Of a stretch of DNA of 64,000 bases, positions 4,528 through 61,216 are shown one piece after another. The translations under genes were made by a program, and so were the position numbers. Position 1 is the first letter of the stretch. Each line of letters opens with the position of its first letter. A model generated the notes under the pieces. That model was not told the DNA's origin. It made no database searches and saw nothing but the letters and a program-made list of their open reading frames with translations. Source of the DNA: an uncultured Christensenella sp. (lineage in GTDB: Bacteria > Bacillota > Clostridia > Christensenellales > UBA1242). The DNA is taken from positions 18,975-82,974 of the forward strand of contig CAZOFH010000003.1 in NCBI GenBank assembly GCA_964579205.1, in the 5' to 3' direction.

Positions 4528-4546
4528 AATTTCCCCTATTTATTTT

Positions 4547-6898: not shown

Positions 6899-7139
6899 TA
6901 CCTCACAAAAATTTTATATAATTATTATATCTTATTTAGTCGCAAAAAATCAACTAATTAAAATTATTTTTTCATATTTTTTTCTTATTTTTTGCAAATT
7001 ATTAATAATTAGTCAAAAAAATACCCAAAAAATCAAAATAAATTCGTAAAAAATATTTTATTCTACCCAAAACACGGCTGCCGACGACGCAAAAATTGCG
7101 ATTTTTTTGCCCATCGAGCCACAAAAACAATTAGCGCAA

Positions 7140-9662: not shown

Positions 9663-9727
9663 AATTTCGCCCTATCCCATCATCTAAATGAGCCTTTTAT
9701 CACAATTTATCAATCAATTTAATTTGT

Positions 9728-11017: not shown

Positions 11018-11028
11018 AAATCACCTCA

Positions 11029-22106: not shown

Positions 22107-22826
22107 TTATAGAGGTTTTTGAATTATCTTGTTTTTCTGTCGTGGATATCTACTGTCTGTTGGAAAAACTTTTCTAATATGAATTAAGTTTCTTTGATAT
22201 ATACCGTTATCGAATGATTTTAAGTTAAAACTATCAATATTTAAAACATCTCCACCTAGTACGGCTATTGCATTTTGGGCGTTATTTAATTCATCTGTAG
22301 TTGTTAATGACTTAAAAGCAATCATTTCACCACTAATTTTTACAAAAGGCAAGCATAATTCAGTTAAAATATTTAATTGAGCCACGGCTCTTGAAATAAC
22401 ATAATCAAATGTTTCACGTGAAACATTTTGTTGTGGTAATTCTTGGGCTCGAGAATGTATGGCTCTAATATTAGTTAATCCCAATTCTGATATCGCAGTA
22501 TTCAAGAAATTAACTCTCTTTTGTAAACTATCAACCAAAGTTATATCTAAATCAGGTCGCATTATTTTAAGCGGGATGCCAGGGAATCCTCCTCCAGTAC
22601 CGATATCACATAAAGATGAGTTGCTTTTGTAGTAATCATAGTTTAATAAACTATCAGCGAAATGTTTGCAAGCAAATTCTTTAATCTCTGTAATTGATGT
22701 TAAATTGAATTGTTGATTATAATAAACAACCAAATCGTAAAATTTTGAAAGTTGTTCAAGTTGCTGACTAGACACGGAAATGTTATTTTGGTCTAAAACA
22801 GTCGAAATGATATCTAATTGCTGCAT
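22107..22826 (-). CDS. rsmG: 16S rRNA m7G527 methyltransferase RsmG (GidB)
   Basis: KHFADSL, DIGTGGGFPGIPL and FDYVISRAVA motifs. Confidence 0.96.
   Translation of the reverse strand: MQQLDIISTVLDQNNISVSSQQLEQLSKFYDLVVYYNQQFNLTSITEIKEFACKHFADSLLNYDYYKSNSSLCDIGTGGGFPGIPLKIMRPDLDITLVDSLQKRVNFLNTAISELGLTNIRAIHSRAQELPQQNVSRETFDYVISRAVAQLNILTELCLPFVKISGEMIAFKSLTTTDELNNAQNAIAVLGGDVLNIDSFNLKSFDNGIYQRNLIHIRKVFPTDSRYPRQKNKIIQKPL
22410..22425. promoter_or_regulatory. parS site inside rsmG (encodes VSRET)
   Basis: Perfect TGTTTCACGTGAAACA within the coding sequence. Confidence 0.9.
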
Positions 22827-24691
22827 TTTTGTGCTCTCCTCTTTTTTAGATAAATAGTAAGAATTTGAATATCGGCAGGCGACACCCCGCTAATTCTGCT
22901 CGCTTGCGCTAATGTTGTTGGGCGGGTGCTAGATAGTTTTTGTTGCGCCTCGATACGCAACCCTTTTAGAGCGCTATAATTAAAATCGGGCGCTATCTCG
23001 ATCGACTCACTTTTTAACTGCTCGAACACTTGTTCTTTTTGAATATTTATATATCCTTCATATTTTGTGATTATATTGAGTTGTTGTAGTATTTCTTGCG
23101 AAAAATCATCAAAAAAGTGGAATTTTTCGTTAAAATTATAAATATTTAGATTACCACGCTTTAATAATGTGCGCAATTTTATTCCTGTTATTACTTCATT
23201 TTCGCCTAAATTGCGCAAATATTCGTTTAATTCTTGTGTTGGGGATAATATTGTTTCTAATACAACTTCTCCCCTAGCGATTTCTTGTTCTTTTTTCAAT
23301 AATTTTTGATAATTTTTGTGGCTAACCAATCCAGCATGGTAGCCCATTTGGGTTAATCTCAAATCCGCATTGTCCTGCCTTAATAGCAAGCGATATTCGG
23401 CGCGCGACGTCATCATCCTATAAGGCTCATTAGTCCCTTTTGTGACTAAATCATCAATCAAAACCCCAATATATGCGTCACTTCGCTTTAAAACGAGAGG
23501 TTTTTGACCTCGAATCGCTAAACTTGCATTAATTCCCGCAAGTAGTCCTTGCGCAGCGGCCTCTTCATATCCGCTACTACCGTTGATTTGCCCTGCGCAG
23601 TATAAACCGCGGATGTTTTTGTACTCCAAAGTAGCAAACAAATCGCGCGAGTCGATACAATCATATTCGATTGCATAAGCATACCTCATCAGATGCGCCC
23701 TCTCCAACCCTTTGATGCTATGGATAAAATCCTGCTGCGAGTGATACGGCAAACTACTCGACAAACCTTGGACATAAACCTCATTAGTGCTGAGCGCTTC
23801 TGGTTCCAAAAAGAATTGATGCCTATTCTTGTCAGCAAATCGTACCACTTTGTCTTCTATAGATGGGCAATATCGCGGACCCACGCCCTTGATTACACCT
23901 TGATATAGTGGGCTATAGCGCAAATTTTCCTTTATTATCTCGTGTGTGCGCTCGTTTGTGTAGCCCATATAGCAAACCGCGATATTTTGCGGCGTTTTGC
24001 GTGTATTTTTGCTAAATGGTGGCAAATTATCTTGCCCCGCTTGAATTTCTAACGCATCAAAGTCTATTGTGCGCTTGTCCACGCGCATTGGCGTTCCAGT
24101 CTTGAAGCGATAAATCGTAAATCCAAGATTAGAAAGGCTCTTTGTCAGTTTTGTTGCATTGGTAAAACCGTTCGGACCGCTATTCTTGATATAATTACCT
24201 GTCAAAGTCCGACTATTAAGGTATACGCCAGTACAAACTACTATAGCCTTTGCAGAAAATTTCTCCCCCATTCCTGTCTTAATGCCACAAACTTTGCCGT
24301 CTTTCACCAAGATTTTGGTTACTTCTGCTTGCAAAATCGTCAAATTTTCTTGATTTTCGAGTGTTTTTTTCATAATTTCGTGATATTTGACTTTGTCTAC
24401 CTGAACTCGTAAAGAATGTACGGCAGGACCTTTTGCCTCGTTGAGCATTCTCCTGTGTATGGTTGCCTTGTCTGCAACCTCTCCCATCACGCCGCCTAGC
24501 GCATCAATCTCAAAAACTAAATGCCCTTTCGCTGTACCGCCAATACTTGGATTGCAAGGCAAAAAACCAATACTATCCAAATTGAGAGTCGTAACCAAAG
24601 TTTTTAGACCAGTTCTGGCGCAAGCCATTGCTGCCTCGCAACCAGCGTGCCCCGCGCCAACAACAATAACATCATAATCAGTATATTTCAT
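22814..24691 (-). CDS. mnmG: tRNA uridine-5-carboxymethylaminomethyl modification enzyme MnmG (GidA)
   Basis: VVGAGHAGCEAA, CNPSIGG, GPRYCPSIEDK and AGQINGSSGYEEAAAQG; start moved to ATG 24691. Confidence 0.98.
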   Translation of the reverse strand: MKYTDYDVIVVGAGHAGCEAAMACARTGLKTLVTTLNLDSIGFLPCNPSIGGTAKGHLVFEIDALGGVMGEVADKATIHRRMLNEAKGPAVHSLRVQVDKVKYHEIMKKTLENQENLTILQAEVTKILVKDGKVCGIKTGMGEKFSAKAIVVCTGVYLNSRTLTGNYIKNSGPNGFTNATKLTKSLSNLGFTIYRFKTGTPMRVDKRTIDFDALEIQAGQDNLPPFSKNTRKTPQNIAVCYMGYTNERTHEIIKENLRYSPLYQGVIKGVGPRYCPSIEDKVVRFADKNRHQFFLEPEALSTNEVYVQGLSSSLPYHSQQDFIHSIKGLERAHLMRYAYAIEYDCIDSRDLFATLEYKNIRGLYCAGQINGSSGYEEAAAQGLLAGINASLAIRGQKPLVLKRSDAYIGVLIDDLVTKGTNEPYRMMTSRAEYRLLLRQDNADLRLTQMGYHAGLVSHKNYQKLLKKEQEIARGEVVLETILSPTQELNEYLRNLGENEVITGIKLRTLLKRGNLNIYNFNEKFHFFDDFSQEILQQLNIITKYEGYINIQKEQVFEQLKSESIEIAPDFNYSALKGLRIEAQQKLSSTRPTTLAQASRISGVSPADIQILTIYLKKRRAQKCSN

Positions 24692-24775
24692 AATTTTCCC
24701 TTTATTTGTATTATGTATAATTATACCATATTTCTGCATAAAAGTACATACCTAAAGGGTGAAAACTATGCATAA

Positions 24776-25289: not shown

Positions 25290-28200
25290 ATGAGCAAGTT
25301 ATACAAAAAAATTTATAATTATTTATTTGTAGTCTTGGGCATCGCGCTGATGTCTTGTCTTGCTATAACGTTTTGCTGGTTGGGTAATCCAAAATCACAA
25401 AAACAAGCGTTTGCGATCGAGGGGGAGTCTGTAGGTTATTGGTTGGATGATGGGAATTTTACTGAAATAAATTTAGGTGCGGCAACCGAATTTGAAATCA
25501 GCACGCCCGAGCAGTTCGCTGGAGTGTGTGCGGCAATAAATAAAGCGACAGATACTGCGGTTTTTGGCGGGGTGACTTTTTACATAACTCAAAATTTGGA
25601 TTTTTCGGCGCATTATTGGGTGCCTATAGGCTTATCGAGTGCTGAAAATTCGGTTTTGGCAAAATTTGTGGCTCGGACAAACAGTAATCAAGACACTATT
25701 CAATTAAGTGGAATAAAAATCGACAACACTTTGTCTGATTTTGCGACCAAATTCCCAGAGATTTCTGCGTTTGGCTTGTTTGGAGTGGTGGATAATTGTG
25801 TGCAAGTTTCTCAAGGATTTATTAAAGGCATCGAACTGGTTGATATGGATATAAAAATTGACCTCAGCAAAGTATCTGCCGACACAATTAATGTTGGTGG
25901 TGTGGCTGGATACTTTGCGGGGCAAAAAGAAAGCAACACGCCAGGGGTGAGTGGTGCTGGTATGATAAATTGTTGCGCGAGCGGTACGATCACTATAACG
26001 CAGTCTACAACAACGGATACAAAAACTGTAAATGTTGGCGGGGTGGTCGGAAATATCGGATTAAATACTTCGACGGGTGCCGGGGCGATGCTTAGTTACA
26101 CAGGGACTTCGATTGCGCAAAGGTTTCAGACTAATGCGGTAGAAATTTCTGTGACTGGCGGTGCGAACAATTTTAATATCGGCGGAGTTGTTGGGCAAAA
26201 TAATGGTACTATTAACGCAAAAAACACCACTTCGACTGAAATTTTCGTGAAAAATCTAAGTAAAATCGCTTCAGATACGGGTAATTGTGGTGGAATCGTT
26301 GGGTTGAATTCTGTCAATAGTGTGGTAGAAAATCTCTCGAGCGGGACAGACGATACTTCTGTTACAAATGCAAAAATCGCCGCTGCGGGTGATAGCGTGC
26401 AAGAAAAATTCTGCGCTGGCGGAATTGCGGGAAGTAATAAAGGAACAATCAAGAACTGTGCTAATTACGCGACGCTGAGTACTTACCAAGGCGCTCTCGG
26501 CGGAATAGCGGGCGACAATGCTAATGTGATAGATAATTGTAAAAACATGGGAATTATTGGCGTCGATAGCACGAGCATACCTGCGAGCGCTGTGAATATC
26601 GATGGAGTAAATCTCAACACCACAATCATTTTGGGTGGAATTGTTGGTAAAAATAGTGCCGCGACAGCCATAATTTCTCTTTGTAAAAATAATGGAGCAA
26701 TCGGCGGAATCGGGCAAGTCAATTATTTGGGCGGCTCTTTTGGGGGAGTGATTGGTAGTAATTGCGCCAACGCGACAATAAAAAATTGTGTAAATTACGC
26801 AACAATCGGCACGAATATTTACGCCAAAAATGCCGGCGGAATAGCGGGCTCAAACTCTGGTAAAATCACCTCGGACACAACTTTGTCTACGGCTAGCGAA
26901 TTTAAATTTACCGCAAATTTGGGTGACGTATATGCTAACAGTTATGCGGGCGGAATCGCTGGCGAGTGGAATAATGAAGTGCTGGGGATGCCGACGATTG
27001 AGATTTCGAACTGTTATAACAAAGGTAAAATCGACGGGCGGATTATGGGGGACAATACGAGTGCCTCAGTGGGAGGAATTTTGGGTGTTTCTCGGAATTG
27101 TCAATCCGATTCGCAAATAAAAAATTGTATTAATTTGGGGCAAATTGGCTCGACAAACGCCGTAGGCACTGCTGGCGGAATTATCGGCGATTCGCAATCT
27201 GTATTTGTGATACAGAATTGTGCAAATTATGGGACTTTGTCTGCAGCTGCTAATTTGGGCGGCATCATCGGCAATATCACTACTGCGGCGCCAACCTTTA
27301 ATTTGGTGATGGCTACTGGCGGATTGTTGCCGCAAAGCGATAATACAAATATTGGTGGAATTGTAGGCAAAATTGCGACGGGTATCACTATAGAGAGTGA
27401 TAGTTTGACAAAAAGCATTTTTGACCTCGGGGTGCTGGGATATGGCTTGCCATCGAACTTGCCTGATTACAAAGAGAACAAACTTTACCCTCTAAAAGTC
27501 ATAGGTTTTGGGAATACGCAGGCGAGATTTTCCCTTCTCAATTCGCCGATTACATATTATATGACTGCTCCCGGGGTGGAGTCTACTACCGGTAGAGAGT
27601 ACCATACGCTCGCATTTTTGAATAGTAGTGACTGGTATTTCCCGACTCAAAATCAGTCTACCCAAACATATTATTATGCTGTGCCAAAAATTTTTCAAGA
27701 TAACGGAATTTTTACTACTGATACCTCTAGTGCGTGGCAAAATGCCGTCGGTGCGCCTTATCCATCTCAACAACTCGCGAAAGTTTCGATAGAAAATCGC
27801 CTGCCGATAGCGTGGGATGCGGAGAATGATGCGGAAGTGGTGCAGTCGTACTATGTGAATATTTTTGACGGCTTGTTGCCTGAAAGTGCAAAAGCGAGCG
27901 TAATCGCAGGCGAGGGGCAGTATGTAATCATTGGGCAAAAAATTGCAAAACCGACGCAAAGCACAACCGCGATTTACCGAGACAGTGACACAACTGCGAG
28001 CGCTTATGATGAGCAAGTGAACGCTCTCGGGTGGAGTGGTCAGTACAATTTTCACGAAGGTTATCAGTCAGAATTCAAGAAAAATCAGCCTTATGGCGAA
28101 GAGTACACTTTTACTGAGAATGTCTTGGATTATAATTTAAATATCATCATAAAATGGACGCCGCGCGCATTCGAGGTGCAGTTGTATGTGTATGATTACG

Positions 28201-30152
28201 ACAACGACGAGTACAAGTTGCAAAATCGCGACGGTCAGGCGAACGAATTTATCACTTATTCGTTAAAGCCGGGTAACAAGCAGACGATTAGCCTGCTCAG
28301 CACAATGGGCAAAACCTATTACGGCTGGAGGTTGGACGGAACGCTCATTCGTACCGATTACGAAAACGAAGATGCGTGGATTGCTGCGTGGGTAAGTGAT
28401 TCGACGACCGAATTTGACCAAAATCAAATCTATCCTAGCGGACTAAAACTATATTGTATGTCCACATTGCAAAAAATTACCCTGCATCTCGGTGCTGGCG
28501 AAATTAGTATTTCTGGGACTGGCGGCGGCATCAGCGGAGTTTTTGACAGCAGCGTCACCCAAATCAACAGAGAGGTGCAATTTGGTATTCAGGTACAGTT
28601 GCCAATTCCGACAATTAGTGTGGCAAATTATACTTTCGAAGGGTATTTCGATATCAACGGCAACAGAAAGACTGCCGCGGATGCAAAATATACGCACACC
28701 GATGCTGCGACTGAGTTTGCGTTGGTGGCGCATTGGACATACACAATAAAATACATCAGGTATGTGTCAAAAATTGATGGTAACGAAATCGAACTAAAAA
28801 CGGTGGAGGCGACTTACAATCAGCCAATTAGCCTTGACAATCAGGCGAGTGAGCAGAATTTTGCGACATGGAACATAAATTACACGATGATTAATTCGGA
28901 GATTGACCCGCTTGGCTACAAATTCAGCGGCGCATATAGCGACCCTGAATGTCAAAATGCTTTTGATTATACCCAAGATATCACGGGCGACTTGACGATT
29001 TATATCGCGTGGGAGCGGTTGAGTTTTACCCTGATGCTCAACGCAAATATCGGATACGATTTGTCAGGGAATTTGCGCGAAGGTGGCTGGGGAGATGGCT
29101 CTAGGATCATTACGCTAAGAGTGCCATATAATGAAAATTTGACTACTTATCTGCAAAACTGGAAAAGTAGCGAAACAGAAAAAAGCGCTGTCAGCGCTAC
29201 GGGTTTTGAACCAATATTAAAAGGAACGGGGTACAACTGGGCTTTGCGCGCTATTCCGATGGGAGATGACTTTACCTCGGATGCGCTCCTCGCAAACAAT
29301 GCTGACAAAAACTTTATGCCAGCGAACAACACCCTTGCCTTGTACATTGTGTGGGAAAGGCAGTTTTATGACATAATTTTTAACGCGAACACGGGGTACT
29401 TCCCAAGCGATAGTGGGGGTGCAACCACTACACAAACGCGCAAAATCTTGTACGAGGCGAATATCAAAAATGCAATCAACTCTTTTGACGCCGACTCGCT
29501 GCAAACAGTCAAGGTCGACGATTATTCAAAATGGGTATTCAAATACTGGAGTCTGACTCCTGACGGCGTGGAAATCCCTGCTGATACCATTATGGGGACA
29601 GGGCTCACGGTTTATGCGATTTATGGTGAGCAGCGTATTGTAAAATTTTATGTCGGCGGCGCGCAACCGGGCAACAAAATCGGTGAAATGATTGTACCAG
29701 ACGGTGCTATTTTGGGCGAAATGTCTGACAAAATGGCTGACTTTAATAAAAGAATTCAAGAAATGCTGCAAGATAGTGAAAGCAAGCAAAGTGCTTTTGA
29801 CTTGGATTATTGGGTAGAAATGACTTACGATGTGGCATACAATATTACCGAATCGACTGAGCCATTTGATTTTGATACTCGCGTGATAAATGAAAATATC
29901 GACTTGCTCGCAAAATTGAAGCCGAACGCAAATTATGTCGCACCGAGCAAAGATACTACAAACTACATAATTATTGCGGGAATTGTGATTGTGGCATCGC
30001 TCGTGCTGTTGTTTGTCGTGTTGGTTGCGCGACCTGCAAAAGCAAGTCTATCTACCGACAAAAAAGCGAAAAACAAGGAAATACAAGCGCAACTAGACGA
30101 AATCAAAGAGTTGGAGCGTCGGCGCAGAAATATGGATAACCCTTATGACTAA
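25290..30152 (+). CDS. Large cell-surface protein with GLUG-like repeats, InlB-B-repeat-like domains and a C-terminal TM anchor
   Basis: N-terminal hydrophobic signal; about 10 GGI(A/V)GxNxxxIxNC repeats; GYxFxGxY...YxxW modules; TM segment YIIIAGIVIVASLVLLFVVLV followed by a basic tail. Confidence 0.85.
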   Translation: MSKLYKKIYNYLFVVLGIALMSCLAITFCWLGNPKSQKQAFAIEGESVGYWLDDGNFTEINLGAATEFEISTPEQFAGVCAAINKATDTAVFGGVTFYITQNLDFSAHYWVPIGLSSAENSVLAKFVARTNSNQDTIQLSGIKIDNTLSDFATKFPEISAFGLFGVVDNCVQVSQGFIKGIELVDMDIKIDLSKVSADTINVGGVAGYFAGQKESNTPGVSGAGMINCCASGTITITQSTTTDTKTVNVGGVVGNIGLNTSTGAGAMLSYTGTSIAQRFQTNAVEISVTGGANNFNIGGVVGQNNGTINAKNTTSTEIFVKNLSKIASDTGNCGGIVGLNSVNSVVENLSSGTDDTSVTNAKIAAAGDSVQEKFCAGGIAGSNKGTIKNCANYATLSTYQGALGGIAGDNANVIDNCKNMGIIGVDSTSIPASAVNIDGVNLNTTIILGGIVGKNSAATAIISLCKNNGAIGGIGQVNYLGGSFGGVIGSNCANATIKNCVNYATIGTNIYAKNAGGIAGSNSGKITSDTTLSTASEFKFTANLGDVYANSYAGGIAGEWNNEVLGMPTIEISNCYNKGKIDGRIMGDNTSASVGGILGVSRNCQSDSQIKNCINLGQIGSTNAVGTAGGIIGDSQSVFVIQNCANYGTLSAAANLGGIIGNITTAAPTFNLVMATGGLLPQSDNTNIGGIVGKIATGITIESDSLTKSIFDLGVLGYGLPSNLPDYKENKLYPLKVIGFGNTQARFSLLNSPITYYMTAPGVESTTGREYHTLAFLNSSDWYFPTQNQSTQTYYYAVPKIFQDNGIFTTDTSSAWQNAVGAPYPSQQLAKVSIENRLPIAWDAENDAEVVQSYYVNIFDGLLPESAKASVIAGEGQYVIIGQKIAKPTQSTTAIYRDSDTTASAYDEQVNALGWSGQYNFHEGYQSEFKKNQPYGEEYTFTENVLDYNLNIIIKWTPRAFEVQLYVYDYDNDEYKLQNRDGQANEFITYSLKPGNKQTISLLSTMGKTYYGWRLDGTLIRTDYENEDAWIAAWVSDSTTEFDQNQIYPSGLKLYCMSTLQKITLHLGAGEISISGTGGGISGVFDSSVTQINREVQFGIQVQLPIPTISVANYTFEGYFDINGNRKTAADAKYTHTDAATEFALVAHWTYTIKYIRYVSKIDGNEIELKTVEATYNQPISLDNQASEQNFATWNINYTMINSEIDPLGYKFSGAYSDPECQNAFDYTQDITGDLTIYIAWERLSFTLMLNANIGYDLSGNLREGGWGDGSRIITLRVPYNENLTTYLQNWKSSETEKSAVSATGFEPILKGTGYNWALRAIPMGDDFTSDALLANNADKNFMPANNTLALYIVWERQFYDIIFNANTGYFPSDSGGATTTQTRKILYEANIKNAINSFDADSLQTVKVDDYSKWVFKYWSLTPDGVEIPADTIMGTGLTVYAIYGEQRIVKFYVGGAQPGNKIGEMIVPDGAILGEMSDKMADFNKRIQEMLQDSESKQSAFDLDYWVEMTYDVAYNITESTEPFDFDTRVINENIDLLAKLKPNANYVAPSKDTTNYIIIAGIVIVASLVLLFVVLVARPAKASLSTDKKAKNKEIQAQLDEIKELERRRRNMDNPYD

Positions 30153-38542: not shown

Positions 38543-39646
38543 TTAAATCTTGTGCATTGGCAATACTAGGTACAAGTAGTCGCCCTCGTCTTGCGAAGTG
38601 ATGACGCAAGGATGTACTGCTGACCCGTACTTGATTTGGACAAATTCATCCGAAATCACGCGCAAAGCATCCGTGTACAGCCTACCATTAAACTCGATTT
38701 TGAGGTCGGCACCGTTGTGAGTGGTCTGCAAATGCTCGGTGATGTTACCCAATTCACTCTCACTGTTGATGACCATATCCTTGCCCGTGATGTCAAATTT
38801 GACGGTAAAGTTGCGGTCCACACGGCTCAGCAACCCTGCACGCTCGATAGTATCCAAGAGGTGTCGGCGGTTGATATTGATAGTGGTGGTAAAGTCGTTC
38901 GGCAAAATCTGACGATATGACACATAGTCGCTCTGCAGCCCCATCAGTCTAGTCAAGAGAATAGTGTCGCCCAAAGTGATTTGCAAATGGTTCTTTTGAG
39001 TACAAATCTTGATAGCGTCATCGGTGTCAGGCAGCAGACGTACGATTTCGAGTAGGCACCTAGCGCTGACTACTATGCCAAATTCCGCACTGTGGCTAAT
39101 AGTCTTTTTGCGGATAAATGCCATCCTCACGCCGTCCAGAGCGACCCCGTGCATCTCCTCTTTGTCCACCTCGAGAAGTATACCGCGCAGCATTGGTCTG
39201 CTGTCGTCTTGGGCAACTGCGACGCTAGATTTGGTGACCAAATCCTTGAAACTGTCGCTGCGGATTTCTACATACTCGGGCTGGTCGAGAGTCTTTGGCT
39301 CGGGGAATTCGCTCGCGTCTTGGCACTGAAAGAACGCCTTGTTGTCGCCGTAGGTCACATCCAGAGTGTTGTCACGCAGGTTAAACTCAATCTGCTCGCT
39401 ACTGATTTTGCTAGCAAAGTCAGCGAAGAATTTGGCAGGGATGACTGCCACACCTGCGATTTTGACATCGGCGTTGATGACCTTGGTAATAGTCAATTCT
39501 AGGTCGGTACAGGTGAGGGTCAATTTTTCCTCTTCAGCGACCATTTTGACACATTCCAAAATTGGGTTGGTCGTGCGCACGGCTGCAGCCTTGACGACTT
39601 TGAGGACTGCGTCCGCCAAATCCAAACCTTGACAAGTAAATTTCAT
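38543..39646 (-). CDS. dnaN: DNA polymerase III beta sliding clamp
   Basis: TTNPILECV, LTCTDLEL, SRPMLRGILL, ALDGVRMA, YVSYRQILP and YLYLVLPM; start at ATG 39646. Confidence 0.96.
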   Translation of the reverse strand: MKFTCQGLDLADAVLKVVKAAAVRTTNPILECVKMVAEEEKLTLTCTDLELTITKVINADVKIAGVAVIPAKFFADFASKISSEQIEFNLRDNTLDVTYGDNKAFFQCQDASEFPEPKTLDQPEYVEIRSDSFKDLVTKSSVAVAQDDSRPMLRGILLEVDKEEMHGVALDGVRMAFIRKKTISHSAEFGIVVSARCLLEIVRLLPDTDDAIKICTQKNHLQITLGDTILLTRLMGLQSDYVSYRQILPNDFTTTININRRHLLDTIERAGLLSRVDRNFTVKFDITGKDMVINSESELGNITEHLQTTHNGADLKIEFNGRLYTDALRVISDEFVQIKYGSAVHPCVITSQDEGDYLYLVLPMHKI

Positions 39647-39888
39647 AAGATTACACCTCGATAGTAAAATATTTGCGGGCATATTGTAGCACAGAAGACA
39701 AAAAATTTCAAATACTTTTGACTAAATTTTGATTTTGAATGTCGCTTTTGCAAAAATAAGACGATTTTTGAAAAATTTTTAAAGAAAACTGCCTTTATTT
39801 TTTGTAAATAAATTGATTTTGCTTTACTTTTGGGTGCGATTTTTGATACAATTACAAAAAGAGGTTTCTTTTTTAGGGGAGGTAAAAA

Positions 39889-41388
39889 ATGAAATTCAAA
39901 ACAAGTATCGGCGACGGGGCATTTTTGGGGCTGATGGTGTTTTGCCTTTTGACGCTCGCTATGTACATTTATTGGGTCGTGAGCGCTGTGTGGTGGCCTG
40001 CGGTTGCGTTGTCTGCCGTGTTGATTGTGGTGATTGTGCCGATTTATTTTGGTACAAAATATGTCCTCACTCGCGATAGGCTGAATATTTATTGTGGCGT
40101 TTTCTGTCGTACGGTGCCATACAGGAATATTATTTCGGTCACCGATGCAAACTGCATTACACCAGCATACGCGATGAGTCACAAGAGGATTTGTTTGCGC
40201 TATCTCGATGGCGATAATATCAAGGTGACTTATATCAGCCCGACCAATCGCGACGCATTCCGTGACGCGCTCAATACTGCTATGCAAAAGTCGATTGCTA
40301 CGCTAAAATCACAGGGCGACACCAACAACATCGAGGCTATTGAGGCTGTGGAGGCTATCAAGGTGCGCTTGGCTCAAGAGCACGAAATCTCACGTGCAGA
40401 GGAGCGCGCTTTGGCGCAGCAAGAGGATGAGCAGAAAAACAAGGCAAAAGAGGATTTGGCTCGCGAAATCAAAAAATTGGACGCTATTATCGACGGAAAT
40501 CTCGCTCCTGAGAGCGTCGTTTTGTCGCAGGAGCAAGAGAATATTATTGCTAGTCGTCGTGCTGCTGAAAGGAAACTTTTGGCGAAAGTCCGCAAATTAA
40601 AACACAAAAAGGACAAAGCTGAGGCAAAGCAATTACTCATCCAAAAGCAAGAGGAAGAATTCGCGCGTGAGTTCGATGCTCGCGAGACTGCTCGGGCTGC
40701 GCAAAAGGCTGCCAAAGAGGAAAAACCCAAATTGACCGCTGACCAAAAATTCGCCGAAAATGAGAGAAAAAAGGCGGAAAAATTCAAACAAAAAGAAGAA
40801 AAACGCAAGCAAAAAGCGGAAAAACAGGCTTTGGCGAAACAACAGGAGGACTTTGAGAACGAGAGTGTTTCGATTGAGCCGCAAGAGGAAAAGCAAAAGC
40901 CTCAAATCGAAAAAATCAAGTCAAAGAATAAGGACAAAATCAACACTGCCAAGCCGAAAAAACAAAAGAATAAACCTGCCACCCCAATATCCCAAGGTGC
41001 TAACGAGGCGAGCACGGAGGAGCAGCAGGCAGTAGAGAAAGATGCTGTGGACGCAAAGGCAAAAAAGAGTGCCGAGGCTGAGGCAAAGAAACTCCAAAAA
41101 GAGCAGCGTGTCAATGATAAAAAGGCTGCCAAGGAGCAAAAGGCTACCGCTAGACAAGCAGAAAAAGAGCAAAAAATCAATGACAAGCAGTCGACCAAAG
41201 CGCAGCGCGCTACTGACAAAAAAGCGGAAAAAGAACAGCGTGCGAGCAACAAAAAATTTGAAAAAGAAGTAAAAGCGGAGGCGAAAAAACTCAAAAAAGA
41301 AGCCGCTGCCGAAGCAAAAGCCGAAAAGAAATCTTCTGCTGAGCAACTAGCCAAAAAAGCCGCAAAATCACAGAAAAATGACCAATAG
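39889..41388 (+). CDS. Membrane protein with a bacterial PH-like domain and a long K/E/A/Q-rich tail
   Basis: Two N-terminal TM segments; TKYVLTRDRLNIYCG...PAYAMSHKRICLRY PH-like region; more than 300 aa of charged low-complexity sequence. Confidence 0.7.
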   Translation: MKFKTSIGDGAFLGLMVFCLLTLAMYIYWVVSAVWWPAVALSAVLIVVIVPIYFGTKYVLTRDRLNIYCGVFCRTVPYRNIISVTDANCITPAYAMSHKRICLRYLDGDNIKVTYISPTNRDAFRDALNTAMQKSIATLKSQGDTNNIEAIEAVEAIKVRLAQEHEISRAEERALAQQEDEQKNKAKEDLAREIKKLDAIIDGNLAPESVVLSQEQENIIASRRAAERKLLAKVRKLKHKKDKAEAKQLLIQKQEEEFAREFDARETARAAQKAAKEEKPKLTADQKFAENERKKAEKFKQKEEKRKQKAEKQALAKQQEDFENESVSIEPQEEKQKPQIEKIKSKNKDKINTAKPKKQKNKPATPISQGANEASTEEQQAVEKDAVDAKAKKSAEAEAKKLQKEQRVNDKKAAKEQKATARQAEKEQKINDKQSTKAQRATDKKAEKEQRASNKKFEKEVKAEAKKLKKEAAAEAKAEKKSSAEQLAKKAAKSQKNDQ

Positions 41389-41673
41389 ATGGTCTTTTTC
41401 TTTTCCCTACACTTGCCTTAGCCCTCGATAAAAAACGCCGTTTTACCTTGCTTTGTCGCGTGCAGTCTAACACGATAATTTCGCGCCTGTCTAGGCAAAA
41501 AACAAGGCGTACCTCGCACCCGCCGCACCCTCTTATAATAAATAAGAATAGAGCGCCCGCTTTTACTCACTCGCCACCAACATTTTGTAGTGTCCTCTTG
41601 TCGGATTTTTTACGCAAAAAATTGGCGAAAAATTTAAAAAGAAAAAAATGTGGAAAAATTTTTCTAAAAATAG

Positions 41674-41702
41674 TTGACAAATTCGCAAAAATGTTGCATA
41701 AT
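41674..41702 (+). promoter_or_regulatory. Sigma-A promoter of the RT; predicted +1 near the ATG
   Basis: TTGACA (41674-79), 17 bp spacer, CATAAT (41697-702); ATG at 41709. Confidence 0.7.
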
Positions 41703-41708
41703 TGGGGT

Positions 41709-42863
41709 ATGATAAAAGATAAGTTTGAAGACGTCTTTTCTCTAAAAAATTTGTATGAGGCGCATATTCGGGGTAGGCGGGCGAAACGGAGCAAGCGGCC
41801 GATTGTGGTGTATGAGCAGGGGCTACTCCACAATCTGCAGATTATGCTCGATGAGGTGCTGTCGGGCAAGTACAGGGTCAAAAAATATCACGATTTTGCC
41901 GTTTACGAGCCGAAAAAACGCCAAATACAGACGCTTTTGTATCGCGACAGAATTATTCAGCACGTTTTGTGCGACCACTTGATCGCGCCGTATTTTACCC
42001 AGCGCGCCGTCATTGATAATGGCGTTTGTCAGGTCGGCAAGGGGACGCATTTTACCCTCAATCGCCTAGTCGCCAACGCTCGCAAACTCGTCCTCCGCGA
42101 GGGCACAGCTGATTTGTATGTGCTAAAATGCGATATTTTGAAGTATTTTCCCAGCATTCCGCACGCCCAACTCAAGCGCCAAGTTTTGCATCATATCGAG
42201 GACAAGCGCTTGCGCGATTTTGTGGAAATGGTCATCGATAGTTATCACACTGCGCCGAGATATCTCATCGAGCACGGCATTCCGCTGGTCGAGCCGTGCG
42301 GCCCGCACCCGTACAATCCTAGCCTAGTCACCACGGGGCGAGGATTGCCTATAGGCAATCAGACGAGCCAAGTTTTTGGGATGTTTTACCTCGACCCGCT
42401 AGACAGATTTATCAAGGAGCAGTTGCGCGTCAAATGCTATTCGCGGTATATGGATGACTTTATCCTCATTCATCCAGACAAGCAGTTTTTACGGCAGGCG
42501 TTGGTCAAAATCAAAGAATTTTTGGACACGCTCGGGCTACAACTCAACGAAAAAACGAAGATTTTTCCGCTCAAAACGGGCGTCACATATCTAGGTTTTC
42601 GGCTGTATTTTTACCCGTCGGGCAAGGTTGTGCGACGCGTCGTGCCAAAGACGGTCAAGCGCTTTGTGTCGCGTGCAAAACTGATAAATTACGCATTTGC
42701 GCACGGACTAATCAAGGTGCCACGCGTGCAATCGATGCTGTCCGCTTATCACGGTCATCTCAAGCACGGTAATTGCAGAACTCTGGAATTGCGGCTCTTC
42801 AAACTGATAAAAATCAATGAAATTTATTCTCAACAAAAGGCTATTCAAAATGGAATCAACTGA
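41709..42863 (+). CDS. DGR-type reverse transcriptase (384 aa)
   Basis: YEPKKRQI, RDRIIQH, GKGTH, LKCDILKYFPSI, GLPIGNQTSQ (the DGR-type GxxxSQ motif), RYMDD and YLGF; no maturase or endonuclease extension. Confidence 0.93.
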   Translation: MIKDKFEDVFSLKNLYEAHIRGRRAKRSKRPIVVYEQGLLHNLQIMLDEVLSGKYRVKKYHDFAVYEPKKRQIQTLLYRDRIIQHVLCDHLIAPYFTQRAVIDNGVCQVGKGTHFTLNRLVANARKLVLREGTADLYVLKCDILKYFPSIPHAQLKRQVLHHIEDKRLRDFVEMVIDSYHTAPRYLIEHGIPLVEPCGPHPYNPSLVTTGRGLPIGNQTSQVFGMFYLDPLDRFIKEQLRVKCYSRYMDDFILIHPDKQFLRQALVKIKEFLDTLGLQLNEKTKIFPLKTGVTYLGFRLYFYPSGKVVRRVVPKTVKRFVSRAKLINYAFAHGLIKVPRVQSMLSAYHGHLKHGNCRTLELRLFKLIKINEIYSQQKAIQNGIN

Positions 42864-43362
42864 TGATGAACTCAATTTAGACATTACAAAAGATGCGCTC
42901 AGGGTGGTGGCGCGAAAGCCGTTTGTCTTGGAGAGTATCGACCCAAACAAGGATAAAGAAAAGGAAATGGAGGTTTTTACTGCGGCTAAAAAACTTTCTG
43001 AATATATCTTTGTGGTTACCCAAAATGCGCCGTCAAAATTTCGCTGGTCGATTGTGACGCGCCTGCAAAATACTAGCGTCGAGATTATCGAGGCGCTGTA
43101 TCTCGCGAATTTCGAGCGCGGCAACGAGCGGCTGAAATTTCAAAAAACTGCAGGGACCAAGTTGCGCCTGCTCGACCATTATGCCGAGGTGGGGTACAAA
43201 CTCAAACTTTTTCCGTTCAGACGCCTCGGTGTGATAACTAGGTATATCGTCGTCGTCCGCAACTTGCTAGCGGGCTGGACAAAGAGCACTCAGCGATATG
43301 AAAAATTGGCTGAGGAGAAATCTCGAGCATCTACCCAAGACGACGCGGCGAACGATAATTGA
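42850..43362 (+). CDS. avd: Avd-like accessory variability determinant (four-helix bundle)
   Basis: PSKFRWSIVTRLQNTSVEIIEALYLAN...LRLL...LLAGW resembles the bAvd pattern; basic helical protein overlapping the RT stop codon. Confidence 0.8.
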   Translation: MESTDDELNLDITKDALRVVARKPFVLESIDPNKDKEKEMEVFTAAKKLSEYIFVVTQNAPSKFRWSIVTRLQNTSVEIIEALYLANFERGNERLKFQKTAGTKLRLLDHYAEVGYKLKLFPFRRLGVITRYIVVVRNLLAGWTKSTQRYEKLAEEKSRASTQDDAANDN

Positions 43363-43620
43363 TTTTGCTGTCATTCGGGTGTTAGAGAGAAGTGGCAAAA
43401 ACAAAAAAGGACCCACCATATCGCAGGCAAAAAGGAAAATCTTCTGCATATTCGCCGTCTTGCTGCTAGTGAGTCGAAATTTGCGCCCGAGACTCGCTCG
43501 CTACGTCAGGACTCGGACCCCTTCATCCACCTCCGTGACTTCTGCACAGCAGTCCTTGGATATGCTGAATACTGGTCGTGTTGCCGCAGCGCGATTTTTT
43601 GCGCTATGTTCCGCAGCAAT

Positions 43621-43760
43621 TAGGGGGTGAAGCGAGGGGCGTACCGCTTGGCTATTGTTTACATTATTGTTATTATAAGAGGAACCTGAGGGGTTGAGAT
43701 TTTAGCTATTATTTGCATTATTATTGTTCGCAGAGCGCCCCCACGTGTAAACATAAGCAG
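43621..43760 (-). ncRNA. DGR template repeat (TR)
   Basis: Minus strand reads TGG GGG CGC TCT GCG AAC AAT AAT AAT GCA AAT AAT AGC TAA AAT CTC AAC CCC TCA GGT TCC TCT TAT AAT AAC AAT AAT GTA AAC AAT AGC CAA GCG GTA CGC CCC TCG CTT = WGRSANNNNANNS*NLNPSGSSYNNNNVNNSQAVRPSL; 14 AAY codons, an internal stop and a G/C-rich 3' end. Confidence 0.88.
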
Positions 43761-43841
43761 TCACAAACACAAAGTCCGTAGCCCTAAACGGCCGCTCTCG
43801 CAAAACAAAATACAGTTTTGGGTAGGCGGTCGTTCGCTAAT

Positions 43842-43870
43842 ATTTTATTCCTTTTTGCGTCTCTCGTCAA
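43842..43870 (-). promoter_or_regulatory. Dedicated sigma-A promoter for the TR RNA
   Basis: TTGACG (43870-65), 17 bp spacer, TAAAAT (43847-42) on the minus strand, about 100 nt upstream of the TR core. Confidence 0.72.
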
Positions 43871-44049
43871 CTGCTTTTTGTTACTTTCCGTGGCTCGTAT
43901 GTCAAAATTTTTCGGTTAAATTGGCTTTTGTGTGGGCGTCGGCTCGCTAATATTTTTTTATAATTTTTCGCTACTATCGGATTGCTCAAGAATTGGCAAA
44001 TTTTTTGCGGTCGACTATTAGATAGGTAGCAAGACACAAAAGCGAAACA

Positions 44050-44077
44050 AAAAGAAGACCTTGCGAGGTCTTCTTTT
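44050..44077. terminator. Terminator of glnS
   Basis: aaaagaagacct-tgcg-aggtcttctttt perfect 12-bp stem. Confidence 0.9.
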
Positions 44078-44082
44078 GATAA

Positions 44083-45768
44083 TTATTTGTTAAAAGAATC
44101 CTTGAGTCCGATAGTTTTGTTAAAAACTAGGCGGTCAGCAGTACTGTCCTTGTCGACGCAGTAGTAGCCTTTACGGACGAATTGGAACACGCGCCCCACT
44201 TCAGCACCCAGCACAAAATTTTCTGCCAGCGCCTCCGTTTCGGTGAGCGATTGCGGGTCAAAAATCTCGTCAATCGTCGTGCCGTTAGCCAACGCCTTGG
44301 CTGGCTCGAGGTATTCCATTTTTGTTAAATTGCCGATTTCGCGAATAGTCACGCGAGTAAAATTACCCTCGGCAACAAAGTGAATGGTACCCTTGACCTT
44401 GATGCCGCTGTTGTCGCAGCCGCTGCGAGTCTCAGGCAAGTACTCGCACTCGAGATAGTCGATTTCGCCATTCTCTTTGTACACCACATTGTTGCACTTG
44501 ATGACGTACGCGTTTTTGAGGCGAACCAGCCCGCCCAAGACGAGGCGGTTGTATTTCGCTGGTGGGTTGAGGCTGAAGTCCTCTTTTTCGATATAAACTA
44601 CGCGCCCGAATTGACTCTCGTGAGTGGTTTTCGGCTCGGCGTTCGGATTATTTTCTACCGCAATCGTCTCGTTTGCACCCTCGTAATTTGTGATTACCAC
44701 TTTGAGCGGGTCGAGTACAACCATTGCACGGTCGGCTGTGCGGTTGAGTTCTTCACGAATGTAATAATTTAGGTTTGAGATGGGCAGCACGGTGACCGCT
44801 TTTGTGACTCCGTTGTTCATCACGAAATTTTTGACCGCCGCGGCAGGGATACCCCTTCGCTTCATTCCCACAATCGTGTACAATCTCGGGTCGTCCCAGC
44901 CCATTACTTTGCCACTGTTGACCAGTTGTTTGAGGTAGCGTTTTCCCAAAAGGACATTTTCGATAGCCAATGCCGCGAATTCAATTTGGCGAGGCTTGTA
45001 TTGCAGGTCTGGGAAGCAATTATCCACTATCCAATTATACAGTGGGCGGTGGTCTTCAAAAGAAATGTCGCACATACTGAATGTGATGCCCTCGAGTGCG
45101 TCCTCAATCGGGTGGGCAAAATCATACATCGGATAAATGCACCATTTATCGCCCGTCTTGTAATGCGGTGTGTGCATAATTCGGTAAATAATCGGGTCAC
45201 GCATATTCATATTTGGGCTCGCCATATCGATTTTTAGACGCAGAGTCATACTGCCGTCAGGGTGGATGCCTGCACGCATTTCCTCAAAAAGTCGCAAATT
45301 CTCCTCAATCGGTCTGTCGCGATATGGGCTGTTTTGCCCAGCAGTTTTGAGGTCGCCACGGGTAGCAAAAACCTCGTCCGCCGTCAATTCGCAAGCGAAT
45401 GCCTTGCCCTCTTTTATCAGAGTTTTGGCAATTTCGTAAAACTTCTCAAAATACGCCTCACTCGAATAAATCACATTTTTTGGGGTGTAGCCCAGCCACC
45501 GCAAATCCTCGAGATAACTATCTGCAAAATCGCCGTCTTCCTTTGTAGGATTTGTGTCGTCCATTCTAAGGTTTGTGTAGCCGCCGAATTTTTTTGCCAT
45601 TTCAAAATCCAGTGTCCAAGCCTTGCAGTGTCCAATGTGCCAGTAGCCGCTCGGCTCAGGCGGGCAGCGGGTGATGACCTCGACCTGCTTGCCTGAGCGC
45701 AAATCCTCGATGATTGCCTCCTCGATAAAATTGGTCGGTGTAATATTGTCCAAAATTTCTTTGTTCAT
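44083..45768 (-). CDS. glnS: Glutamine--tRNA ligase
   Basis: PPEPSGYWHIGH, RMDDTNP, NMNMRDPIIYR, WCIYPMYDFAH, GWDDPRL and FQFVRKGYYCVD. Confidence 0.96.
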   Translation of the reverse strand: MNKEILDNITPTNFIEEAIIEDLRSGKQVEVITRCPPEPSGYWHIGHCKAWTLDFEMAKKFGGYTNLRMDDTNPTKEDGDFADSYLEDLRWLGYTPKNVIYSSEAYFEKFYEIAKTLIKEGKAFACELTADEVFATRGDLKTAGQNSPYRDRPIEENLRLFEEMRAGIHPDGSMTLRLKIDMASPNMNMRDPIIYRIMHTPHYKTGDKWCIYPMYDFAHPIEDALEGITFSMCDISFEDHRPLYNWIVDNCFPDLQYKPRQIEFAALAIENVLLGKRYLKQLVNSGKVMGWDDPRLYTIVGMKRRGIPAAAVKNFVMNNGVTKAVTVLPISNLNYYIREELNRTADRAMVVLDPLKVVITNYEGANETIAVENNPNAEPKTTHESQFGRVVYIEKEDFSLNPPAKYNRLVLGGLVRLKNAYVIKCNNVVYKENGEIDYLECEYLPETRSGCDNSGIKVKGTIHFVAEGNFTRVTIREIGNLTKMEYLEPAKALANGTTIDEIFDPQSLTETEALAENFVLGAEVGRVFQFVRKGYYCVDKDSTADRLVFNKTIGLKDSFNK

Positions 45769-47153: not shown

Positions 47154-47819
47154 ATGGCAGCCAAAATGATTGCGGTCGCAAAAGACGGTAGTTGTATGTC
47201 GGGAGTGAATATAATCAAGAGGGCGGATATTCGCGGCAAAGTTTTGATGAACTATGTAGAAATCCCCAAAACGGCGGGGCGCATTTCTCAAGGCAGCGTT
47301 GTGTTTTTGGAGGAAAGTGCGGTAAAATTCGTCGATAAGTTTGTTGGTTTTCGAGATGATGGCCCGTGCGTGAGAATGAAAAATCTTGAATTTGCTTTTT
47401 CGCATTTTGTTGATTGCCTCGATGCTGACGCGCGGTCTTATAGTATGGATACGTATCGCCGCGTTGCAGGCAAGCCTTTTTACGACGATAATATTTATTT
47501 TGACGGATATTCGATTTTGGAGGCTTATTCCAAAGTTTTTGCATCGATGAGTGAGGATAAGCAGACCGTTAAAGCAATCAAATCCAAATTGAAAGATATG
47601 CGGATTTTTGAAGAAAACTTGCTCGGTGTCGAGTGGGGCGTGTCGGAATATCGCAATATTCAGTCTTATGTAATGCAAAAATTCGGCAAAAAGAAGAGTG
47701 AAGTGTCTGATTTTGTACATAGCAAGACAGTTGAGTATTTGATGCATTCTGGTGCAGAAGTTTTCGGCTTGGCAAAAGCAAGCCTCAAGGCAAACAACCA
47801 GTGCCAGAATGTGCAATAG
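47154..47819 (+). CDS. Putative orphan immunity protein (paralog of 49176-49880)
   Basis: Alignable to the gene downstream of the toxin; last 46 codons identical at DNA level. Confidence 0.6.
   Translation: MAAKMIAVAKDGSCMSGVNIIKRADIRGKVLMNYVEIPKTAGRISQGSVVFLEESAVKFVDKFVGFRDDGPCVRMKNLEFAFSHFVDCLDADARSYSMDTYRRVAGKPFYDDNIYFDGYSILEAYSKVFASMSEDKQTVKAIKSKLKDMRIFEENLLGVEWGVSEYRNIQSYVMQKFGKKKSEVSDFVHSKTVEYLMHSGAEVFGLAKASLKANNQCQNVQ
47673..47811 (+). repeat. 139-bp perfect direct repeat, copy 1
   Basis: atgcaaaaattcggc...gtgccagaatg, identical to 49698-49836. Confidence 0.95.
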
Positions 47820-49175: not shown

Positions 49176-49880
49176 ATGGAAAGAGATTTGATAATTTTTG
49201 CACGAGATGCTAATCTTTATGTTGGAATTGGTATGATTCCCAAAGAGCAGATGAAAGATGAATTTCTTGTTGATTATTTAGAAGTCAAGGATGTTGGGAA
49301 AGGCTTCCCATTTGGTAGTATTGTTCATGTTGGTGATGGCAAAAAAAAATTTGATAATACAATTTTAAAAATTGTAAAGGTGAGCGATTGCCAAAGGCTA
49401 AAGAATTTAGAAAAAGCATTCTACCATTTTATGGACTGTTTGGACGCAGGATCTTATACCTTTAATAATCCTCATCAGATGGATTTTATATTGGGTAAAC
49501 CTTATTGTGATGATGAAATATTTTATGACGGTCACTCAATTTTGGAAGCATATTCAAAAGTTTTTGCCTCGATGAGCGAGGATAAAAAAACGATAAAAAC
49601 GATTAACCTAAAGTTAAAAGAAATGGAAAAATTTGAAGAAGATTTTTATGGTTTGCCATTTGGTGAAATGGGGTGCAAAACCCTCGTTCCGCACATTATG
49701 CAAAAATTCGGCAAAAAGAAGAGTGAAGTGTCTGATTTTGTACATAGCAAGACAGTTGAGTATTTGATGCATTCTGGTGCAGAAGTTTTCGGCTTGGCAA
49801 AAGCAAGCCTCAAGGCAAACAACCAGTGCCAGAATGATACTCCCTCCGCCGAGATGCTAGAAGCGCAAGCAAGCAAATAA
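49176..49880 (+). CDS. Putative cognate immunity protein
   Basis: Lies 16 bp downstream of the toxin-like gene; cytoplasmic; paralog of 47154-47819. Confidence 0.65.
   Translation: MERDLIIFARDANLYVGIGMIPKEQMKDEFLVDYLEVKDVGKGFPFGSIVHVGDGKKKFDNTILKIVKVSDCQRLKNLEKAFYHFMDCLDAGSYTFNNPHQMDFILGKPYCDDEIFYDGHSILEAYSKVFASMSEDKKTIKTINLKLKEMEKFEEDFYGLPFGEMGCKTLVPHIMQKFGKKKSEVSDFVHSKTVEYLMHSGAEVFGLAKASLKANNQCQNDTPSAEMLEAQASK
49698..49836 (+). repeat. 139-bp perfect direct repeat, copy 2
   Basis: Identical to 47673-47811. Confidence 0.95.
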
Positions 49881-60466: not shown

Positions 60467-61216
60467 TTAGAATAACATAGCAATCGCATAAAGCAGCACG
60501 ATATGTGCTGGATAGAAAATATAGAAAAAGTATTTTAATCGCAACTTGCCGCGTGCGCCGTTGTAGAATGCTAGCGGGATAAGCGCCAATAATGCGACTA
60601 TCTGATTACCACCCAAAGCAATAGCCAGCGCGAGTAGGGCAATACCCAAAAACATCAAACGGCAGGGCTGACTGTCAAAACGATTTAGTGTGCCTGCATT
60701 GATGCCCTTTAGACTTGGGATGCTAGCAAAAAATGCAACCATAACCCCATAAATACCATAGTCTACTGCCAAAATATTGCAACTAAGTGCGCAAAAAATG
60801 AGAGTTGTTGCAAAAAGTAATAAGTAAAAAATGTTATTGAACCAACTAAATTTTTGCTCAAATATCACTTGTTTGCATTTTTGAAAGGAGTAAATCAGAG
60901 TAATAGAAAGCGCAAAACAAATAAAAATATTTCCAAAATACATCCCAATACAAGCATACTGCACTATCATCATTAGCATTCCGAGTATTGCCATAAACAG
61001 CAAATACTTGGGTTTGTTGCGAGTGTGCTTGCAACCCTCGGCGATAAAGAATGCAAAAATTGGCATCGCCAGTCTGCCGATGGTGCGAAAGAAGGTGACT
61101 TGCGGAAAAAGTATCATCCCAATATGATCAAGAAGCATACATACACAAGCAAATATCTTGAGCGTGTTGCCATTCAAAAATCGGAAATTATGTGACTGAG
61201 CGAAACTAGGCGTCAA
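60467..61216 (-). CDS. TraX-family membrane protein
   Basis: LKIFACVCMLLDHIG...IGRLAMPIFAFFIAEG..HTRN..KY...YNGARG...FYIFYPAH. Confidence 0.85.
   Translation of the reverse strand: MTPSFAQSHNFRFLNGNTLKIFACVCMLLDHIGMILFPQVTFFRTIGRLAMPIFAFFIAEGCKHTRNKPKYLLFMAILGMLMMIVQYACIGMYFGNIFICFALSITLIYSFQKCKQVIFEQKFSWFNNIFYLLLFATTLIFCALSCNILAVDYGIYGVMVAFFASIPSLKGINAGTLNRFDSQPCRLMFLGIALLALAIALGGNQIVALLALIPLAFYNGARGKLRLKYFFYIFYPAHIVLLYAIAMLF

Follow-up and report, generated by a model that had tools for sequence, protein, structure and literature searches.

The diversity-generating retroelement (DGR) of Bordetella phage BPP-1 (brt, avd, TR and mtd; structures 4dwl and 8ub7-8ube) carries its accessory gene, template repeat (TR) and reverse transcriptase (RT) gene in the order avd-TR-brt, next to a single target. 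DGRs of the Treponema denticola type are instead chromosomal, non-phage and trans-acting; they serve several distant paralogous surface-protein genes and carry an HRDC accessory gene (Architecture C; Wu et al., 2018, PMC5758913). A survey (Roux et al., 2021, PMC8144416) reported the DGRs of gut Firmicutes chiefly from phages. Here we describe an RT-avd gene pair at positions 41,709 to 43,362 of a 64,000-nucleotide stretch of DNA (the window; contig CAZOFH010000003.1, positions 18,975 to 82,974, forward strand) from an uncultured Christensenella sp. (GCA_964579205.1), which represents a DGR lineage of gut Clostridia that is fully cellular and acts in trans. The genome of this stretch, with an assembly of 1.14 Mb, is called G000, and other G and L numbers denote genomes and loci of relatives; all genomes are drafts, mostly metagenome-assembled, and the NCBI labels of some records (L001, for example) conflict with the genome grouping used here.

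The locus shares with BPP-1 an RT bearing IGxxxSQ and YMDD motifs, for which the phage enzyme is the closest solved relative, a basic four-helix-bundle Avd, adenine-specific differences between template and variable repeats, and, by sequence, a GC-rich boundary at the 3' end of these repeats. It departs from the phage system in its chromosomal, overlapping RT-avd arrangement, in a TR that lies on the other strand, in having four targets on other contigs, and in an extra acidic extension of 40 aa at the N terminus of Avd. With the Treponema type it has in common a non-phage, trans-acting character and several distant paralogous surface-protein targets, but Avd is the only accessory protein here, the RT belongs to a different RT clade, and the hosts are small-genome gut Clostridia.

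Non-canonical architectures are already on record. Schillinger et al. (2012; PMC3521204) distinguish DGRs with a TR downstream of RT (group 2) and 'inverted' DGRs (group 4), and Wu et al. (2018; PMC5758913) name B2 (avd-RT-TR) and B3 (TR-(avd)-RT). Both papers state that the mechanism does not dictate the order of the components and that TR and RT may be transcribed separately; TRs may stand downstream of RT or on the other strand, as the TR does here. Published inverted DGRs invert TR, variable repeat and target together, whereas only the TR unit is inverted at this locus and the targets are remote. The order RT-avd-TR is absent from the major types B1-B3 named by Wu et al. (2018; PMC5758913), all of which place avd before RT; 48 variants are counted there in total.

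A template repeat, four remote targets and two DGR proteins

Comparison of positions 41001-44100 with the whole assembly revealed a TR lying 267 nt beyond the avd stop codon, with its sense on the minus strand, and four variable repeats (VRs), each 85% identical to it (C1:217428-217560, C4:116263-116395, C11:961-1093 and C18:1023-1155). The mismatches are concentrated at template adenines: 18 replace an adenine by another base (A-to-N) and 2 are of other kinds in the C1 VR, and the corresponding numbers are 15 and 5 in the C4, C11 and C18 VRs. Only one non-adenine change per VR falls inside the VR core; on the plus strand nearly all mismatches appear as T-to-N. In frame 0 the TR reads ...SANNNNANNS*NLNPSGSSYNNNNVNNSQAVRPSL, and its adenines cluster at the first two codon positions (AAY codons). 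TR and VRs share a GC-rich 3' end (...GCGGTACGCCCCTCGCTTC) and diverge directly after it, a boundary that by sequence resembles the initiation of mutagenic homing sites IMH and IMH*.

The four targets are paralogous surface-protein genes. The C1 VR lies at about residues 400-440 of an open 707-aa gene and is followed by Listeria-Bacteroides repeats (Flg_new), the only part of the target recognised by Pfam; the N-terminal domain that bears the VR has no Pfam match. Because the C1 and C4 VRs differ from each other at different adenines, at least two independent homing events must have occurred. The RT-avd pair belongs to a complete DGR with an adenine-specific TR/VR set, and it is the TR and its remote targets, more than phylogeny, that prove this. 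Two repeats elsewhere in the window (47469-47811 and 49494-49836, 100% and 72%; inside the open reading frames (ORFs) 47154-47819 and 49176-49880) had been considered as a TR/VR pair and were set aside once the adenine-specific set was found.

The RT is a DGR RT. Its ORF is open and contains GLPIGNQTSQ at residues 212-221 and YMDD at residues 247-250; these motifs, the length of 384 aa and the 14-nt overlap with a 170-aa ORF had been noted in a preliminary description made from the sequence alone, and all are found in the sequence; that description did not connect the pair with the TR or with the remote targets. The best match in the PDB is the BPP-1 enzyme bRT (8ub7_A, E 4.2e-36), with group II intron RTs at 2e-9 or worse. 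The IGxxxSQ motifs of the two DGR enzymes align, and the residues matching R74 and I181 of bRT, which influence adenine-specific infidelity, are conserved. Trees built from 86 related genomic RTs, bRT segments taken from the PDB alignment and group II RTs from genomes of the same order placed the window RT, with support of 100 in both quick and careful versions, in a clade that contains bRT and excludes the group II outgroups. The RT phylogeny proposed earlier as a check thus comes out on the side of a DGR enzyme.

The product of the small ORF has a number of features typical of Avd: firstly, the core (residues 41-150) is basic, with an isoelectric point of 10.3; secondly, an iterative search connects it with small ORFs beside 84 of 89 related RTs; thirdly, a 37-sequence profile matches 2gsc (1.6e-6), bAvd of BPP-1 (4dwl, 3.6e-3) and 8ub7_B (0.04). 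An AlphaFold2 model based on the 37-sequence alignment (mean predicted local distance difference test score 88.9) predicts helices at residues 41-57, 62-88, 92-117 and 123-168. The top 22 PDB matches of this model in Foldseek are all 2gsc, 4dwl, the Avd chains of 8ub7-8ube or 2rld (target TM-scores 0.72-0.93), and all belong to the Avd/'S23-like' four-helix-bundle family; against bAvd 4dwl the target TM-score is 0.87-0.89 with a root-mean-square deviation of ~1.6 Å. Judged by its modelled fold, the small ORF is an Avd, as the preliminary description had suggested, although its sequence HMM scores stay below threshold. The acidic N-terminal 40 aa are modelled with low confidence or as disordered and contain an RKPFVLE motif common to the three RT-then-avd clade members in the Avd alignment; the C-terminal tail is acidic as well.

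Gene order and genomic position across relatives

Of 89 genomic RT loci, 72 have avd upstream of RT and 11 have it downstream, in all these cases on the strand of RT; 1 locus has it downstream on the opposite strand, and at 5 loci no avd was found. RT-then-avd therefore accounts for 11 of the 84 genomic relatives with an Avd match. It does not occur among 79 viral relatives with a placed avd: avd was upstream in 79 of 80 IMG/VR loci and not found in the remaining one. These counts (72/84 genomic and 79/80 viral relatives with avd upstream) agree with the earlier claim that the order seen here is unusual.

Ten of the eleven RT-then-avd loci form one clade (support 100/100), and all ten of its RTs share 50% identity or more with the query. 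The norm in this clade is RT-avd-TR with all parts co-directional (G007, G010, G015, G031 and L002). The TR unit is inverted in G000 and in G009, the nearest relative with a DGR; in L004 it was inverted independently. A sister clade from the same host genus (L005-L007, L094 and L098; G002, G003 and G013), which also has Avd and whose RTs are 44-48% identical, differs in carrying avd upstream of RT throughout; its two members with a detectable TR, L005 and L006, read avd-TR-RT. Since the sister clade is avd-first throughout, the RT-then-avd order arose after the two clades split. It is a derived architecture of one clade of cellular DGRs.

The junctions between RT and avd in the ten-member clade measure -14, -11, -8, -4, -4, +6, +13, +20, +137 and +206 nt, so that 8 of 10 fall between -14 and +20 nt. 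Because tight juxtaposition is the rule in this clade, translational coupling of Avd to RT is a reasonable inference from these sequences. The clade would thus combine RT and avd as a tightly coupled two-gene operon with a template that behaves as an independent, even invertible unit. This supports the view of the DGR protein machine and its template RNA as separable modules, a property useful for engineering trans-acting diversifiers.

Two further observations concern the repeats of clade members. Locus L004 has two TR-like copies (10612-10735 and 11577-11697) 3' of avd, both inverted relative to RT, one of which pairs with a VR at 14849-14969; this locus may be a case of alternative templates. 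The VR of G007 (L091 5951-6078) has a 1-nt deletion opposite a TR adenine that splits the target into two ORFs; either the DGR produced this frameshift or the assembly of a heterogeneous VR introduced it.

The lineage follows its hosts. Identities of glnS and RT agree in rank within the clade (glnS/RT pairs of 80/70, 72/59, 87/71 and 99/98%), and the ratio of nonsynonymous to synonymous substitution rates (dN/dS) between G007 and G010 is 0.04 for RT and 0.12 for Avd; for other clade pairs dS is saturated, with dN at 0.23-0.52. No RT above 38% identity, and no member of the clade, was found among IMG/VR and GenBank phage sequences. A DGR RT is present in 9 of 17 species of the genus, in two different lineages, and G014, the closest relative by glnS, is without one. 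G031, from another family, has an RT that is 53-58% identical and a glnS that is only 50% identical, which points to horizontal transfer.

The genomic position of the cassette, by contrast, is not conserved. No congener has it beside glnS, dnaN or the bPH gene that flank or neighbour the pair in G000; it lies 3' of tuf in G007 and G010 and 3' of ftsW in G015. In G007 (L091 ~4490-11164) the order RT-avd-TR-GIY-YIG-target occupies ~6.7 kb exactly between the tuf stop codon and the promoter of the next gene, and the same site is empty in G015 (L283), G000 (L116) and G009 (L286), where tuf is directly followed by the next gene. Synteny flanking glnS breaks down even among the closest relatives, so that no empty site can be defined for the insertion in G000. 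The description of the pair as 'stably host-adopted' is only partly right: it fits the lineage, given its co-divergence and purifying selection, and fails for its position, with different housekeeping loci occupied in each species. We conclude that the lineage is host-associated and non-phage, and that the cassette is an accessory block that has been gained, lost or moved.

The GIY-YIG gene of the G007 insert encodes 95 aa (PF01541; L091 7703-7990) and has a counterpart within the cassette of G031 (L096 11459-11746). The two hosts are from different families, the proteins are 40% identical, and the order is RT-avd-TR-GIY in one cassette and RT-avd-GIY-TR in the other; neither G000 nor any of 167 further DGR loci examined has the ORF. 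It may act as an accessory factor, serve mobility or simply hitch-hike.

Repeats of another kind surround the block. An AT-rich promoter-like motif (aaaaattggcgaaaaattt...TTGACA...; window 41600-41703) has copies of 60-73% identity in dozens of intergenic regions, spread over almost every contig, and flanks the DGR block on either side as imperfect inverted arms; in the G007 insert, such repeats stand at internal gene starts and at the right border. The 17-19-nt AT-rich arms were considered as element ends and rejected, being copies of this genome-wide motif.

A probable trans-acting chromosomal DGR and its rivals

We consider it very probable that positions 41709-43362 are the protein-coding core of a complete, chromosomally resident, trans-acting DGR. 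RT and Avd would be made from one short operon with its own predicted promoter, Avd translation probably being coupled to RT termination through the 14-nt overlap, and the two proteins would form a complex by analogy with Bordetella phage BPP-1. This complex would copy an antisense-encoded TR RNA (43761 to 43629, minus strand), transcribed separately, into adenine-mutagenised cDNA, and the cDNA would replace the VRs of four or more paralogous genes for surface proteins that lie on other contigs. Complex formation, coupling, promoters and current activity are the parts of this scheme that we infer.

Several points weigh against this reading. The Avd ORF covers the whole of the models Pfam bAvd (PF22296) and NCBIfam DivGenRetAVD (NF033474) but scores below threshold on both, with 29 bits against a cut-off of 40 and 34.6 bits against a cut-off of 80, respectively. 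The promoters and the coupling are predictions from sequence, and the RNA that follows the TR (43400-43640, minus strand) folds no better than shuffled sequences (z = -1.1), so that no structure is supported there. Co-divergence was measured with one marker gene across eight genomes of metagenome-assembled quality, and G031 and the pair G002-G003 deviate from it, exceptions that suggest occasional transfer. Finally, the TR contains an in-frame TAA (TR sense positions 58-60) at a codon that reads TAY (Tyr) in the TR of each of seven relatives; at this codon the C1 VR has TCT and the C4, C11 and C18 VRs have TAG, truncating those targets, and the latter three VRs are identical over all 133 nt, including their 15 A-to-N changes and the TAG.

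The targets that share this identical VR (C4 end, C11 start and C18 start; L119, L121 and L120) are only 94-96% identical over ~1.1 kb. Identical VRs in diverged paralogues point to gene conversion or to assembly collapse at contig ends. Since the template contains a stop, null alleles should arise in a sizeable fraction of homing events.

The stop codons also provide the case for an unlikely alternative, that the element is a decaying relic, no longer active, in which the ORFs are still open while the template has acquired a stop and most targets have been knocked out. The TAA is peculiar to this TR among its relatives, three of the four VRs carry the in-frame TAG, and these three are identical, so that none of them has been diversified on its own since homogenisation. 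On the other hand, RT and Avd retain their full length and every catalytic and signature motif, and the clade is under strong purifying selection. The C1 VR, moreover, reads TCT at the TAA position and differs at other adenines, which shows that homing occurred separately, and since mutagenesis itself repairs the TAA in most events, this codon is not lethal to the system.

Somewhat less likely still is a reading in which the block is an integrase-less mobile island and, separately, the template TAA makes the DGR a combined diversifier and phase-variation device. In these 1-Mb genomes, poor in recombinases, such a block may relocate among intergenic sites beside the essential genes tuf, ftsW and glnS while still co-diverging with its host, and relocation might proceed by recombination at the bounding genome-wide AT-rich promoter-like repeats or with the help of the GIY-YIG nuclease. 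If this were true, the TAA would turn a target paralogue OFF in roughly one homing event out of three.

That the block is classically mobile, as cargo of a prophage, an integrative and conjugative element or a transposon lying partly outside the examined DNA, is very improbable. The different loci in congeners, the discrete 6.7-kb insertion in G007 with empty sites elsewhere, the RT of G031 that is closer than the host distance predicts, and the nuclease gene travelling inside two cassettes would all fit such cargo. Against it, the window ORFs scanned include no member of an integrase, phage or transposase family, and contig C1 carries the only tyrosine recombinase of the whole 1.14-Mb assembly, which has zero serine recombinases, which bears out the earlier statement that mobility genes are missing. 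Around the block there is no tRNA gene within 30-56 kb and there are no att-like direct or terminal inverted repeats. The immediate neighbours are dnaN, glnS, tuf and ftsW, phage collections hold no clade member, and the G007 insert contains only DGR parts, the GIY-YIG gene and a target. The one window ORF whose family is named after a plasmid gene is a TraX-family ORF (60467-61216, minus strand; PF05857, 4.6e-28), around which no other conjugation genes were found.

The idea that the RT is instead of a defence type (the UG/DRT families, for 'unknown group' and 'defence-associated RT', or abortive infection, Abi), a retron or a group II intron enzyme standing beside a helical ORF by chance can be dismissed: it draws on moderate generic scores in PADLOC/NCBIfam (RT_UG17 7.5e-25, Drt3a 6e-18), but the NCBIfam models for group II, retron and Drt enzymes all stay below their cut-offs, bRT is much the closest solved relative and groups with the RT in the tree away from group II enzymes, and the cognate TR with its four adenine-mutated VRs already refutes it.

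The trans-acting chromosomal DGR that we favour leaves the known DGR mechanism unchanged. It is a known system in an uncommon, clade-specific RT-then-avd order, cellular, integrase-free and not positionally stable. Hosts of ~1.1 Mb with a single recombinase offer a clean natural system in which to ask how DGR cassettes change position and how cells cope with a mutator beside essential, origin-proximal genes.

Transcription units and chromosomal setting

Coordinates of the features of the locus in the window
Feature	Position	Strand	Remarks
Sigma-70-like promoter, RT-avd	41674..41702	+	TTGACA-17-CATAAT, 11/12 consensus matches; predicted
DGR reverse transcriptase, 384 aa	41709..42863	+	motif-4 IGxxxSQ, YMDD; Pfam RVT_1 1.7e-15
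RT/avd overlap	42850..42863	+	14 nt, avd start codon to RT stop codon (ATGGAATCAACTGA); direct sequence reading
Avd accessory protein, 170 aa	42850..43362	+	basic four-helix-bundle core 41-150, extension, tail
Segment 3' of TR, Bordetella 'Sp' spacer position	43400..43628	-	ends in terminator-like hairpin and T-run (43428-43411)
Template repeat (TR), 133 nt	43629..43761	-	convergent with RT-avd; 43 adenines, AAY codon runs, one in-frame TAA
Promoter-like site for antisense TR transcript	43842..43870	-	TTGACG-17-TAAAAT, 10/12 matches; predicted
Bidirectional terminator-like hairpin at glnS end	44050..44077	.	12-pair stem, T-runs on both strands; right-hand limit of DGR block

The promoter-like sites would fit two transcription units, an RT-avd operon and an antisense TR. 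The predicted -10 box of the operon ends 6 nt 5' of the RT start codon and reads CATAAT in G000 and TATAAT in G009 (L001 1-18), which suggests a leaderless or near-leaderless RT mRNA in these two genomes; other clade members have ordinary RT leaders with a Shine-Dalgarno sequence. The avd start codon lies 10 nt 3' of an AAAGG and upstream of the RT stop codon at 42861-42863. An in-frame ATG at 42817 was considered as an alternative avd start and rejected, having neither a ribosome-binding site nor support from relatives. On the TR side, positions 43403-43751 are 67% identical to G009, and an Rfam scan of 41300-44200 gave no matches at E<=1.

The pair was described earlier as lying between a PH-domain gene and glnS, about 2 kb from dnaN and close to the origin, and each of these placements is borne out. 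To the left is a gene with a bPH_4 domain (39889-41388; Pfam, 1.2e-11), beyond which dnaN (38543-39682, minus strand) lies 2 kb from RT. To the right, glnS (44083-45768, minus strand) is convergent with the pair; its product is a Glu/Gln tRNA synthetase of class I in which both C-terminal anticodon domains are present. On contig C3 the cumulative GC skew reaches its minimum at about window position 25 kb (C3 ~44000), ~17 kb to the left of RT; the origin-proximal position is thus real in G000 and is not a conserved property of the element. This sharp minimum lies between a gidA-like gene (22814-24739, minus strand) and a gene of 1620 aa (25290-30152, plus strand), and the ORFs around it presumably encode ParB, ParA, RsmG, MnmG and MnmE, which they resemble in their N-terminal sequences.

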